Origin: a virus
Strand: one strand, 5' to 3'
Virus record (IMG/VR): IMGVR_UViG_3300031788_000068
DNA: 33,722 nt
The translations under genes and the position numbers were made by a program. Of the stretch, positions 3,798 through 6,632 are shown one piece after another. The notes below the pieces were generated by a model. It saw nothing but the letters and a program-made list of their open reading frames with translations. It searched no databases and had not been told where the DNA came from. Within the stretch, counting starts at the first letter, position 1. Each line of letters starts with the position of its first letter.

Positions 3798-6632
3798 TTA
3801 ATGCACAGCGCTTTTGGGTTTCCGACCGCGCTTGCCCTTGATCCGCTCGATCGTGCTATCACTCCCATCTTGGTCACGCTGTTCAATCTCATTATCCACC
3901 TGTCGGGTATAGCTCGGCATCGCCCCGGCCATGATCAACAGGTCGTCCCGGATATCTTGCGCCCGGCGTTCGATATTGAGTACCCGGCGAAAACAGTTGA
4001 ATGAGTGAATACCTGAGCTAAGAGCGAAACTTCCCGTAGTGGGAACACTAGGGCAATACACCCGCTCGTTCTTCGGATCAATGGCTTGACGATTACCGGG
4101 ATAGACCCGCCAGCCCTTGGGTTTATCTTGATGGGTTTCGATCCATTGATCACGGTGTTGGCTTCTCAGTAAATCGTCGCTGACCATTGAACGCTTTTGG
4201 ATCACAAGGTTTCCGCTTACTTTGTTACGCCGTCCGAAGTTGGTCACCTCCGCTAGTAGTGTATAACTTCCGAAATGCCAGCCGATCAGAGGCGCCCATT
4301 GCTTTATCCATTCGCTTTCGGCCACATCCCCACAGACTGTGACTATGCCTTCTGAACTGACACAGCCATCTGCCGCAAGCCAACCCCGTAGAAATCCCCG
4401 CAGATAATCCAGTGATTGACCTGGAGTTTCCGGAAGGCGTTTGAGGTCGCACCACATATTATGAAGGAAATAAACCGGGTCGCCATTCGCAGATGGTGGA
4501 TTTGATTTGGTATAACCATCGAGCCAAGACTCCAAGCTCACCTTAGAGCCGCACAGTCGCATGAAGTAACTCTTAGTTGGTTCCCAACTTAGACTGCCGT
4601 CGCCATAAATTAAGCCATGAATCACACCACGACGATGTTCCTCTGCATCATCGATTACGGTTGACGGGCGGAGGTCAGCAGTCCAAACCTCTTTGGTGCG
4701 ATAGCCATTACCATCGACAAAATGCTTGGTGTTGATTCTCTCACCGGTTCCTTCCTGTACCCAACCATGATCGAGTGTTGATCGAATCGACACCTTCTCG
4801 AAATTGCCCGAGAAATTGAGATTGACCGTGTCTTGCATCCCGTAGTCATGGATGTGCGATTTGACCCAATCACCGTTTCCATCGAGTAACGTGACATCCT
4901 GTTCCGCGACATCTTGAATCGCGATCGACCCATACTCGCGGGTCAAGATCATCGTTGAACCACTCAGGCAATTTTTGATAATTTGCGTGTAAAAACTAAA
5001 TGGATTATCCGACCGCGCCTCGTTGAATTGTAAGCCAACTTGAGCCAGTTGCACGAGCGCATGACTACGCATTTCGTCGAGGTAGGTATTGCCATTTTGA
5101 TACACTGTGCCATTTCTGCGACACATAAAGGAGCCGTATTCGGTTTCTGGGCACCAGATTTTGCCTTTGTAGTTTACGGTCGGTTCGTTTGGATGATAAG
5201 CCTTGCCAGGATGCGCCCTCCCGTTTCTTTTACCGCCGTGGAAATCGATGTTTTCGACCATCGAGTGCCGGAAAATATCGTGCGCCTTTGAAAAGATGTT
5301 GACTTCGTTGATCGAGGTCGGAACACCAAACGACACGATATCGTCTCGTAGGCGTGTCGTGGTGCGATGACCGGCGAGCGTGCATAGGGCCAGAAAGGCG
5401 TCGAGATGCTTTTTGTCTTTCTGGCTGTATCTGAGATAGCCGCCATACTTGTTATCGGCGCCAAACGTTTTAGTCCGACTTCCGTCACCGTCCACCATCG
5501 TGTTGATCAAGATTTCTCTTTGCGCTTGTGACAGCGTCAGGATGAAGGGCATGGAAAGAACGCGACCTTCGGCTACCGCTAGGATTTTGTCACACATCTC
5601 CTTGGTCAAATTGAACACTACCAAAGTGCCGCTTGCGACCGGTCGATGGGTCTCGCTAAAGGTGCTTTTTAGAGAATTCAGACATGCGCGGATACGATCA
5701 GCTTTTGCACCTTCGTTCTGGGAAATAGACACCCGGCAGTAGTTGCGTCCTTCCTCGAAATAGTAACTTCCTTCGGTTACAGTCCATCCAATCAGTTCAA
5801 CGAATTCGTCAGTATAGGTTGTATCCGTGTCGGCGACCGGATCGCCTATCAAGACCAAACGATCTTTTTCGATCAGAAGCTCGACCTCTTTCAACCCCTT
5901 ATCCGTAACGAACTTGTGGTGTGGCGTCACCAGTGCGTCCATGCCTGTCACGGTAAGATGGAACATCTTGCCATCATACTCGTCGTTCCGGAAGATCGAC
6001 TTGATCTTTGACCATTTCATCTGACCATTTTCATAGGACAGAATGATATCATCTTCATTGATCTCGTCGCCATTCAGCCAGCCTCGCTGAGTCAATGCTT
6101 CAGTTTCTTGATCTACACAATAGTTGCGCCAGCTACCACCGCGCGAGTAACGTTCAACCAGCAGGATGAACATATTGGCCAAGCGGTTTGACATCCCGCC
6201 GCATTCGAGGGTGAAATTGCCGTTCTCCAAGCCGCCATGCCAATGCGACCGGCCGACCTCGACCGGTTTGCCTTCCCGCAGGATGAAATGGCGGAATGGC
6301 GGGAAGTTGGTCTTCACCACCCAGCCGCCAGTGCTGGACGCCTTGCGGCGTTTCTCATCCGCCTCCGCTGGCAGATGCGTATCCGACATCAGCCGAATGA
6401 CGATTTCCTCGCGATCGAGACTGGCCGGATCAATAGTTAAGGTCTTGCTGGACAGTTTTGACGCCTTGCTCTCGACCGCCTGCTGAAACAGTTCCGGAGT
6501 GACATCATCCAACGAGGCCACGATCATATCAAAATTGGCGAATTCCGGCGCCAAGTAACTGCAATAGCTGTTCTTCGAATTGTGTATCTCAGACAGGAGT
6601 TCACGGTTCGTAATATACTTGATCTTCTGCAT
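3798..6632 (-). CDS. T4 gp55-like late-transcription sigma factor interrupted by two inteins (944-aa precursor, about 275-aa mature extein).
   Basis: The extein segments recall T4 gp55. 'ITNRELLSEI' matches 'NNKELLQAI'. 'LANMFILLVERYSRGGSW' matches '[23 protein letters not shown]'. 'YLDEMRSHALVQ...NEARSDNPFSFYTQIIKN|CFRRVLNIERR' matches 'KQEMIADGIEAS...[27 protein letters not shown]'. These rely on recall of the T4 sequence, not a database hit. Two Hint/LAGLIDADG insertions are listed separately. Residues 24-145 are an extra segment absent from T4 gp55. Confidence 0.55.
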   Translation of the reverse strand: MQKIKYITNRELLSEIHNSKNSYCSYLAPEFANFDMIVASLDDVTPELFQQAVESKASKLSSKTLTIDPASLDREEIVIRLMSDTHLPAEADEKRRKASSTGGWVVKTNFPPFRHFILREGKPVEVGRSHWHGGLENGNFTLECGGMSNRLANMFILLVERYSRGGSWRNYCVDQETEALTQRGWLNGDEINEDDIILSYENGQMKWSKIKSIFRNDEYDGKMFHLTVTGMDALVTPHHKFVTDKGLKEVELLIEKDRLVLIGDPVADTDTTYTDEFVELIGWTVTEGSYYFEEGRNYCRVSISQNEGAKADRIRACLNSLKSTFSETHRPVASGTLVVFNLTKEMCDKILAVAEGRVLSMPFILTLSQAQREILINTMVDGDGSRTKTFGADNKYGGYLRYSQKDKKHLDAFLALCTLAGHRTTTRLRDDIVSFGVPTSINEVNIFSKAHDIFRHSMVENIDFHGGKRNGRAHPGKAYHPNEPTVNYKGKIWCPETEYGSFMCRRNGTVYQNGNTYLDEMRSHALVQLAQVGLQFNEARSDNPFSFYTQIIKNCLSGSTMILTREYGSIAIQDVAEQDVTLLDGNGDWVKSHIHDYGMQDTVNLNFSGNFEKVSIRSTLDHGWVQEGTGERINTKHFVDGNGYRTKEVWTADLRPSTVIDDAEEHRRGVIHGLIYGDGSLSWEPTKSYFMRLCGSKVSLESWLDGYTKSNPPSANGDPVYFLHNMWCDLKRLPETPGQSLDYLRGFLRGWLAADGCVSSEGIVTVCGDVAESEWIKQWAPLIGWHFGSYTLLAEVTNFGRRNKVSGNLVIQKRSMVSDDLLRSQHRDQWIETHQDKPKGWRVYPGNRQAIDPKNERVYCPSVPTTGSFALSSGIHSFNCFRRVLNIERRAQDIRDDLLIMAGAMPSYTRQVDNEIEQRDQDGSDSTIERIKGKRGRKPKSAVH
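3996..4970 (-). mobile_element. Intein 2 (Cys555..Asn879, 325 aa) with a LAGLIDADG homing-endonuclease domain. The +1 residue is Cys880. It is inserted immediately before the conserved 'CFN' of gp55.
   Basis: Block A is 'CLSGSTMILTREYGSIAIQDV'. Block B is 'RSTLDHGW'. The LAGLIDADG motifs are 'GVIHGLIYGDGSLS' and 'LRGFLRGWLAADGCVS'. Block G is 'RVYCPSVPTTGSFALSSGIHSFN|C'. Confidence 0.75.
5088..6119 (-). mobile_element. Intein 1 (Cys172..Asn515 of the precursor, 344 aa) with a LAGLIDADG homing-endonuclease domain. The +1 residue is Thr516.
   Basis: Block A is 'CVDQETEALTQRGW'. Block B is 'LTVTGMDALVTPHHKFVT' (T-x-x-H). The LAGLIDADG motifs are 'ELIGWTVTEGSYYF' and 'LINTMVDGDGSRT'. Block G is 'KIWCPETEYGSFMCRRNGTVYQNGN|T'. 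The penultimate residue is Gly, not His, so the exact C-terminal boundary (N513 vs N515) is ambiguous by 2 residues. Confidence 0.65.

Follow-up and report, generated by a model that had tools for sequence, protein, structure and literature searches.

A gp55-type late sigma factor gene interrupted by two predicted LAGLIDADG inteins in an environmental phage sequence

The stretch of viral DNA analysed here (IMG/VR record IMGVR_UViG_3300031788_000068, 33,722 nucleotides, hereafter referred to as the window) contains, according to its list of open reading frames (ORFs), a single ORF of 944 amino acids (aa) which very probably encodes the gp55-type late sigma factor of a T4-superfamily jumbo phage, split by two independent mobile inteins and self-spliced to a product of 275 aa. 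The two inserts are recognised as inteins by their anatomy, homology and fold, by the existence of empty-site alleles and by the conservation of their catalytic residues, from which protein splicing and endonuclease activity are predicted. The type of element is known, while the host protein appears to be unreported, though abundant in sequence data. Published surveys find inteins mostly in enzymes of replication, repair, nucleotide metabolism and packaging, with few in the core transcription and translation machinery (PMC4760082). No report of an intein in gp55 or in any other sigma factor was found in the full-text literature, including surveys of inteins and of jumbo phages, a search which did not extend to InBase.

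A gp55-type protein and its insertion sites

The unspliced 944-aa precursor matches the family phrog_12791, annotated as 'sigma factor for late transcription', in four separate stretches (E 2.9e-62). Once the two inserts are removed, the 275-aa sequence matches the same family nearly end to end (E 3.8e-75), and also matches the T4-type family phrog_234 (E 4.9e-18). A tblastn search of 50,697 phage records with the spliced protein gave unbroken alignments to intein-free jumbo-phage genes, at 37-42% identity over 88-93% of the query, with matches in Sinorhizobium phage Phosso, the Pseudomonas PA5oct group and the Rak2-like jumbo phages. In a large protein collection, hundreds of metagenomic proteins of 270-300 aa show 50-61% identity over 98-100% of the spliced sequence. 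A profile built from 38 proteins of the extein family and compared with the PDB returned T4 gp55 as its sole match (7d7c chain F, E 8.5e-10), and a phmmer search of the PDB with the unspliced precursor returned nothing at E <= 1. Likeness to gp55 had been suggested in an earlier note on this DNA, made from the sequence without database searches, and is borne out by the PHROG, tblastn and PDB profile matches. The jumbo-phage sigma factors of PHROG 12791 (from PA5oct, Rak2-like phages such as Serratia BF and Pectobacterium CBB, and Phosso) are matched over nearly the full length of the spliced extein, but the deposited genes are uninterrupted, giving single-piece alignments, whereas the gene in the window carries two inteins. 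For phage CBB, neither gp33 nor gp45 was found by the authors of its description (PMC5259590).

In T4 gp55, helices H1-H4 form a domain resembling sigma region 2 (sigma-R2), in which E70, D74 and E77 on H3 contact the beta-prime clamp helices of RNA polymerase, while N13, L54, R57, F86, H95, Y97 and T99 make the pockets that read the -10-like element (PMC7892883). The equivalents of N13, R57, F86, T99 and E70 are invariant or nearly so in the extein family (N9, R165, F192, T205 and E176 in spliced numbering), whereas the positions of H95, Y97 and L54 differ and are occupied in the window protein by Phe, Phe and Tyr, respectively. The middle extein is 56-90% identical among homologs and aligns with T4 gp55 residues 64-104. 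Alignment to T4 gp55 with HMMER places intein 1 between the equivalents of Y63 and T64, where it separates the R57-type pocket residue (R165) from helix H3, and intein 2 between those of N104 and A105 inside helix H4, five residues past the T99-type pocket residue (T205). The second insertion thus falls directly after the equivalent of N104 in the A101-C-F-N104 stretch of T4 gp55, as was already noticed from the conserved 'ACFN'. With 344 and 325 foreign residues inserted at these two places, the precursor would not be expected to form the sigma-R2 domain and should be inactive as a sigma factor. Sigma function, and late transcription with it, should depend on splicing.

The spliced protein also differs from T4 gp55 (185 aa and intein-free in 7d7c and 7d7d, chain F) in having a basic C-terminal tail (KRGRKPK) and an insert of ~120 aa, modelled as folded, after the first helix. 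Profile positions 28-132 have no match in T4 gp55 (7d7c_F), which leaves ~105-120 residues without a counterpart. Residues 24-145 had been described as an extra segment rich in acidic and basic residues: the lack of a counterpart in T4 gp55 stands, but the segment is not specially charged (26%, vs 27% in the whole extein). Nor is it peculiar to this gene, being conserved in hundreds of intein-free homologs, including those of PA5oct, the Rak2-like phages and Phosso, and being covered by the matches to the jumbo-phage family described above. Invariant residues within it are R80, H86, P88, H115, E125 and an R-S-H-W motif at 128-131. It is modelled with predicted local distance difference test (pLDDT) values of ~85-95 as a mixed alpha/beta fold with beta strands, and comparison with PDB structures gave no fold match apart from the sigma core, leaving the insert domain without a detectable structural relative. 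The whole jumbo-phage gp55 subfamily is predicted to share this segment as a conserved, folded domain.

The inserts as inteins and their relatives

The intein boundaries that had been proposed, at aa 172-515 and 555-879, proved exact: excision is in frame, gives the 275-aa product and leaves an acceptable nucleophile (C, S or T) at the +1 position on both occasions, at the junctions N515/T516 and N879/C880. Together the inteins account for 669 of the 944 codons, as previously counted, the Hint blocks A, B and G are legible in both and conserved among homologs, and all four LAGLIDADG motifs were located (Table 1). The clearest view of the uninterrupted state comes from an ortholog at the syntenic locus of a 249-kb contig (L004), which has the same divergent arrangement of baseplate genes and reads WRGY/TYVDEMRS and FYTQIIKN/CFRRILNL (slashes mark the two empty sites). 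The DNA of this allele also provides candidate target sequences for the two predicted endonucleases.

Intein boundaries were mapped in 120 homologs. In the family of intein 1 (n=62, the window included), Cys1, the Thr and His of block B (B:7 and B:10) and the Cys of block F (F:4) are each present in 62/62 members; 59 members end in Asn and 3 in Gln, and the +1 position is taken by Thr in 41 cases and by Ser in 21. In that of intein 2 (n=17), Cys1, Thr-B7, His-B10, Trp-B12 and Cys-F4 are each present in 17/17; 11 members end in Asn and 6 in Gln, and Cys stands at +1 in 16, with Ser in the remaining one. Alleles with a C-terminal Gln occur among P0002-P0004, P0009, P0011 and L002, the last of which is a syntenic, 82%-identical relative whose intein 2 ends in HTFQ before the +1 Cys. 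Comparison of intein 1 between the window and L002 gives proportions of nonsynonymous and synonymous differences of 0.11 (pN) and 0.71 (pS), and intein 1 is under purifying selection. Intein 2 of L002 (also found as P0001) has cleanly lost the endonuclease block corresponding to aa 661-837 and is kept as a mini-intein of 147 aa, which is the expected path of decay for a homing intein. An AlphaFold2 model of the precursor has a mean pLDDT of 85.6, with the intein cores mostly >90, and both inserts are modelled with the same beta, alpha-beta, beta layout. The top Foldseek matches of this model are inteins with an endonuclease, namely TliVMA (6.5e-12), PI-SceI, PI-PfuI and PI-TkoII, and LAGLIDADG enzymes such as I-DmoI.

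Several observations weigh against this reading. The penultimate His (block G:6) is missing from both inteins, being replaced by Gly in intein 1 and by Phe in intein 2, and intein 1 of the window has Asn at G:5, where 54/62 homologs have Thr or Ser. The Pfam model Intein_splicing (PF14890) falls far short of its 35.8-bit cutoff, reaching 16.4 and 15.0 bits, and on intein 1 only; no Pfam model matches the spliced extein or the 38 members of its family. The Foldseek comparison was run on the whole precursor, so that its matches are not assignable to either intein, and both splicing and DNA cleavage are predictions from sequence and model. Finally, the window covers 33.7 kb, and a second, uninterrupted sigma gene is possible elsewhere in the genome. 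Gly is the penultimate residue in 53/62 members of the intein 1 family and the position is variable in that of intein 2; this His is poorly conserved in phage inteins generally, and a phage intein with a penultimate Gly splices better than its His mutant (PMC5050341). Several homologs do bear precomputed PF14890 matches. The link to gp55 was drawn from PHROGs, the PDB profile search and fold comparison because Pfam has no matching extein family.

Both inteins are formally of class 1, since Cys1 is present in 62/62 and 17/17 of their homologs, but the lineage of intein 2 may straddle the boundary with class 3. The W-C-T positions that define class 3 (B:12, F:4 and G:5; PMC3196547, PMC5050341) are occupied in the intein 2 family by Trp in 17/17, Cys in 17/17 and Ser or Thr in 16/17 members (Ser in the window). 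Intein 1 has Phe at B:12 and shares the Cys at F:4. Class 3 inteins such as MP-Be DnaB and MchDnaB1 have no N-terminal nucleophile, whereas both inteins of the window keep Cys1; class 1 inteins that bear a Cys at F:4 have been described and are of polyphyletic origin (PMC3196547). In P0245, a ribonucleotide reductase (RNR) relative of intein 2, Cys1 is replaced by Pro, and this protein looks like a true class 3 intein.

The acidic residues of the LAGLIDADG motifs are retained in ~90% of homologs in both inteins; for intein 1, motif 1 has Glu or Asp in 55/62 and motif 2 has Asp or Glu in 57/62. The Pfam model LAGLIDADG_3 (PF14528; cutoff 22.5 bits) scores 27.6 bits on intein 2 within the full protein and 21.9 bits on intein 2 alone, while intein 1 has no Pfam LAGLIDADG match of its own. 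I-DmoI and I-Tsp061I are Foldseek matches of the precursor model with a probability of 1.00. Intein 2 of P0006, P0009, P0011, P0020 and P0021 carries an additional ~50 aa between the equivalents of window aa 834 and 835 (GRKYDW…G.S…IA..LG…L), which look like a helix-turn-helix DNA-binding module and are not present in intein 2 of the window. The L002 contig also contains, at 15878-16399, a gene of GIY-YIG/Eco29kI-like type and, at 19255-20181, a free-standing one that faintly matches HTH_58 and LAGLIDADG_3, which suggests a genome rich in homing-endonuclease elements.

Among 385 retrieved proteins, 121 consist of the sigma factor only, 156 of the sigma factor with intein 1, 22 of the sigma factor with both inteins and 5 of the sigma factor with intein 2 only; the set was not sampled without bias. 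Counted by element, intein 1 is found at this site in at least 178 of the retrieved proteins and intein 2 in 27. The earlier note had called a doubly invaded transcription factor unusual, which holds relative to the published intein literature, but such genes are not rare in sequence data. In their sources, the intein-bearing alleles that were checked go under 'hypothetical protein' or 'DNA primase'; the latter name was given by JGI to the sigma-gene fragments P0241 (identical to window aa 561-944) and P0242.

The intein 1 lineage extends to cultured phages. Synechococcus phages B23 and B3 (Kyanoviridae) have a 340-aa intein, 47% identical to intein 1, at the same site (between Tyr and the initiating Cys at one end, and between Asn and Ser or Thr at the other). 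Their gp289 (MN695335 and MN695334, respectively), a 'T4-like gp55', differs from the window protein in being a short gp55 of 164 aa after splicing, with no insert domain and one intein; the gene is annotated as 'hypothetical protein' and its intein is unannotated. A search with the spliced B3/B23 gp55 found 1,257 places in 1,255 phage records, the two extra places being the split halves in B3 and B23, from which it follows that these two phages have the only interrupted gp55 genes of that collection and a single gp55 locus each. Because both propagate with only an intein-bearing gp55, splicing in vivo is very probable for the intein 1 lineage. An exhaustive search of representative sequences found many more proteins, 500-530 aa long, in which the match runs from the end of the N-extein through intein 1 into the middle extein; these are probably short gp55 genes with intein 1. 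A third insertion point is seen in P0249, a 498-aa protein from a JGI metagenome and a T4-like gp55 of the short type, which has a relative of intein 2, at 27% identity, inside H3 (…DGIEN/CLHRDT…GILTGN/CLMYIDNFD…), which brings the intein insertion points of the gp55 family to at least three.

Outside the sigma factors, intein 1 aligns over its full length, at 23-28% identity, with in-frame inserts in actinophage genes for portal, TerL, DNA polymerase, thymidylate synthase and phosphoesterase, and at 45-50% with inserts in ParB_N/DUF4417, AAA_25 and portal proteins. The inteins of actinophages and mycobacteriophages (Kelley et al. 2016, PMC5050341) share with intein 1 the LAGLIDADG endonuclease, the frequent lack of the penultimate His and the Cys initiator; however, their hosts are packaging and replication enzymes rather than a transcription factor, and identity to intein 1 is low. 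Intein 2 is 48-51% identical over its full length to RNR inteins of metagenomic origin (P0243, P0278 and P0290) and 24.5% identical to that in the RNR of Thermobifida phage P318. The host site is alike in the RNR inteins (AMN/CFV in P0243, IKN/CFR in the window), whereas the host protein differs.

Mechanism, rival explanations and base composition

The course of events that best fits the architecture would begin with translation of the 944-aa precursor, in which the two independent inteins interrupt the sigma region-2 core. In each intein, Cys1 (or the invariant block-F Cys) would attack the upstream peptide bond, and the acyl group would move to the +1 Thr (intein 1) or the +1 Cys (intein 2). 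Cyclisation of the C-terminal Asn would then release the intein and leave the exteins joined. The resulting 275-aa sigma factor, its core uninterrupted, would bind the host RNA polymerase and direct transcription of late (structural) genes. The LAGLIDADG endonucleases presumably cut intein-free alleles during co-infection, with the intein being copied into the break, and such homing would explain the occupation of the same two sites in many distantly related phages.

It is conceivable, but in our judgement unlikely, that splicing has been recruited as a post-translational gate which yields active late sigma only when time, redox state, temperature and metal ions permit both inteins to splice. 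In favour of such a gate are the position of both inteins in the functional core, on account of which the precursor should be inactive, and the invariance of Cys1 and the block-F Cys in both inteins. Moreover, differential, stress-responsive splicing is shown for DnaB of Mycobacterium smegmatis (PMC6195587), likewise one essential protein with two inteins of different lineages, although this host is a bacterial replicative helicase; and penultimate residues other than His alter splicing of phage inteins (PMC5050341). On the other hand, the orthologous locus is free of one intein or of both in many close relatives, so that the phage life cycle can do without a gate, and the patchy distribution, retained endonucleases and foreign composition of the inteins fit selfish homing. 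A wider proposal, which we hold to be just as doubtful, is that, in a large group of environmental jumbo phages and cyanophages, the late sigma factor constitutes an unrecognised intein hot spot, with at least three sites, in which two inteins gate late expression. One possible mechanism of gating would be reversible oxidation of the pair formed by Cys1 and the block-F Cys, with virion genes being transcribed only once both inteins had spliced.

Still less probable is that one or both inteins are splicing-dead relics, the gene being a decaying pseudogene and late transcription depending on another sigma gene outside the window. The non-canonical block G of both inteins, including the Asn at G:5 of intein 1 in the window, would agree with this, as would the weak Pfam scores and the fact that the genome is seen only in part. 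Against it, the 944-codon frame is intact, every family-invariant catalytic residue is present and selection is purifying, while the penultimate Gly is the family norm and, in the phage intein referred to above, performs better than His (PMC5050341). The cultured phages B3 and B23, moreover, have only an intein-bearing gp55.

The base composition bears on a further explanation, put forward in the earlier note, by which the whole sigma allele, exteins included, was recently acquired by horizontal transfer. The gene had been described as 46-50% GC throughout, compared with about 60% in its neighbours. The GC content of the whole gene is indeed 50.7%, against 56.7% for the window and an average of 57.4% for 1-kb windows outside the gene. 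However, the drop is confined to the inteins and the middle extein: GC is 49.0% in intein 1, 50.1% in intein 2 and 44.4% in the middle extein, whereas the N-extein (54.6%) and the C-extein (56.4%) match the neighbours. The two 60-nt windows on which the comparison had been based (4441-4500 and 7201-7260, with 48% and 72%) are unrepresentative. Every one of the 1-kb windows outside the gene (n=578) exceeds intein 1 in GC content, and all but 0.2% exceed intein 2. At third codon positions (GC3), the N-extein (0.71) and C-extein (0.65) resemble the other genes of the window (0.70 when pooled), whereas values are lower in intein 1 (0.57), intein 2 (0.51) and the middle extein (0.49).

The low value of the middle extein recurs in relatives of the gene, where the same stretch has a GC3 of 0.28 in L004, which is intein-free, and of 0.39 in L002, the neighbouring genes having 0.51 and 0.57. 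As L004 is equally AT-rich there, the low GC is intrinsic to the stretch, and for the same reason a co-conversion footprint of homing was rejected as its cause. Given also that the locus is syntenic in L002 and L004, transfer of the entire allele is highly improbable. The inteins are foreign DNA and the allele as a whole is not.

The least credible explanation is that the inserts are permanent domain insertions or fused free-standing endonucleases kept in the mature protein, for which nothing specific speaks beyond the reading of splicing from sequence, and against which stand the invariant HINT blocks, the Cys1, the TxxH motif and the terminal Asn with its +1 nucleophile, the fold-level match of the model to inteins, the interruption of helices in a compact four-helix sigma-R2 domain, and the relative L002, which lost the endonuclease and kept exactly the splicing domain.

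Gene neighbourhood, candidate late promoters and significance

The layout of the gene, with its two inteins and three extein segments, is given in Table 1 together with the positions of a candidate promoter element. A chimeric assembly is not a credible source of this layout, as the same architecture occurs on independent contigs from different samples.

Table 1. Features of the sigma factor gene and occurrences of CTAAATA. Positions refer to the window unless the L002 contig is named; amino acid numbers are those of the precursor.
Feature	Position	Strand	Description
Precursor gene	3798..6632	(-)	944 codons + stop; stop codon 3798-3800
N-extein, aa 1-171	6120..6632	(-)	ends ...RGGSWRNY; N-terminal helix KYITNRELL, insert domain and sigma-R2 helix H2
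Insert domain, ~aa 22-146	6195..6569	(-)	no counterpart in T4 gp55; conserved alpha/beta (predicted), invariant R-S-H-W
Intein 1, aa 172-515 (344 aa)	5088..6119	(-)	CVDQE...YQNGN; HINT and predicted LAGLIDADG endonuclease; Cys1, Asn515, +1 Thr516
Intein 1 LAGLIDADG motif 1, LIGWTVTEG	5769..5795	(-)	acidic residue E287
Intein 1 LAGLIDADG motif 2, INTMVDGDG	5481..5507	(-)	acidic residue D383
Middle extein, aa 516-554 (39 aa)	4971..5087	(-)	TYLDE...IIKN; sigma-R2 helix H3 (TYLDEMRS...; predicted RNAP clamp-helix contact) and predicted promoter-recognition segment NPFSFYTQ
Intein 2, aa 555-879 (325 aa)	3996..4970	(-)	CLSGS...HSFN; HINT and predicted LAGLIDADG endonuclease; Cys1, Asn879, +1 Cys880
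Intein 2 endonuclease region, aa 661-837	4122..4652	(-)	block missing from L002/P0001
Intein 2 LAGLIDADG motif, IHGLIYGDG	4596-4622	(-)	acidic residue D678
Intein 2 LAGLIDADG motif, LRGWLAADG	4365-4391	(-)	acidic residue D755
C-extein, aa 880-944	3801..3995	(-)	helix H4 continued (CFRRVLNIERR...), basic tail KRGRKPK at end
CTAAATA, window	6722-6728, 13510-13516, 15171-15177, 15995-16001	(+)
CTAAATA, window	2949-2955	(-)
CTAAATA, L002 contig	13140, 13896	(+)
CTAAATA, L002 contig	997, 9905, 20700	(-)

The surrounding genes form a baseplate and structural module, with gp53-like, gp5-like, gp25-like and gp6-like genes, which is divergent from the sigma gene. The module also contains an ORF of 3,549 aa at 19841-30490(+), which matches the virion structural protein family phrog_10938 and is very large even for a jumbo phage. 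A gene for a dual-specificity phosphatase (DSPc) lies immediately downstream of the sigma gene, at 3249-3779(-); it also adjoins the sigma gene in L002 (12312-12848), but not in L004.

The heptamer CTAAATA is enriched in the window, with 5 occurrences vs 1.03 expected, a number reached in 0/100 shuffles. At 4/5 of these sites an ATG follows within ~30 nt. In L002, a called gene start follows each of the 5/5 sites at a distance of 4-27 nt, among them the starts of the orthologous gp53-like and gp25-like genes, and the heptamer is absent from L004. The T4 late-promoter consensus TATAAATA has 0 matches in the window. CTAAATA is a plausible candidate for the -10-like element of late promoters read by this sigma factor. 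One of the sites, at 13510, is followed after ~25 nt by an ATG at ~13541(+) with an upstream GGAG, and the gene there may start at this codon, ahead of the ORF start used (13723).

The sigma gene described here adds an abundant new class of host protein for inteins, with three insertion sites; the sites seen in the window are filled in hundreds of environmental phages as well as in the two cultured cyanophages. It also exposes an annotation problem, in that such genes are deposited as 'hypothetical protein' or even as 'DNA primase'. The unusual active sites, namely the combination of Cys1 with a class-3-type W-C-S/T signature, the penultimate Gly or Phe where His is usual and the C-terminal Gln variants, could aid studies of the splicing mechanism or the development of tools. 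With two interruptions in the functional core of a promoter-specificity factor, these phages offer a natural system for studying an entire temporal class of genes whose expression would depend on protein splicing.

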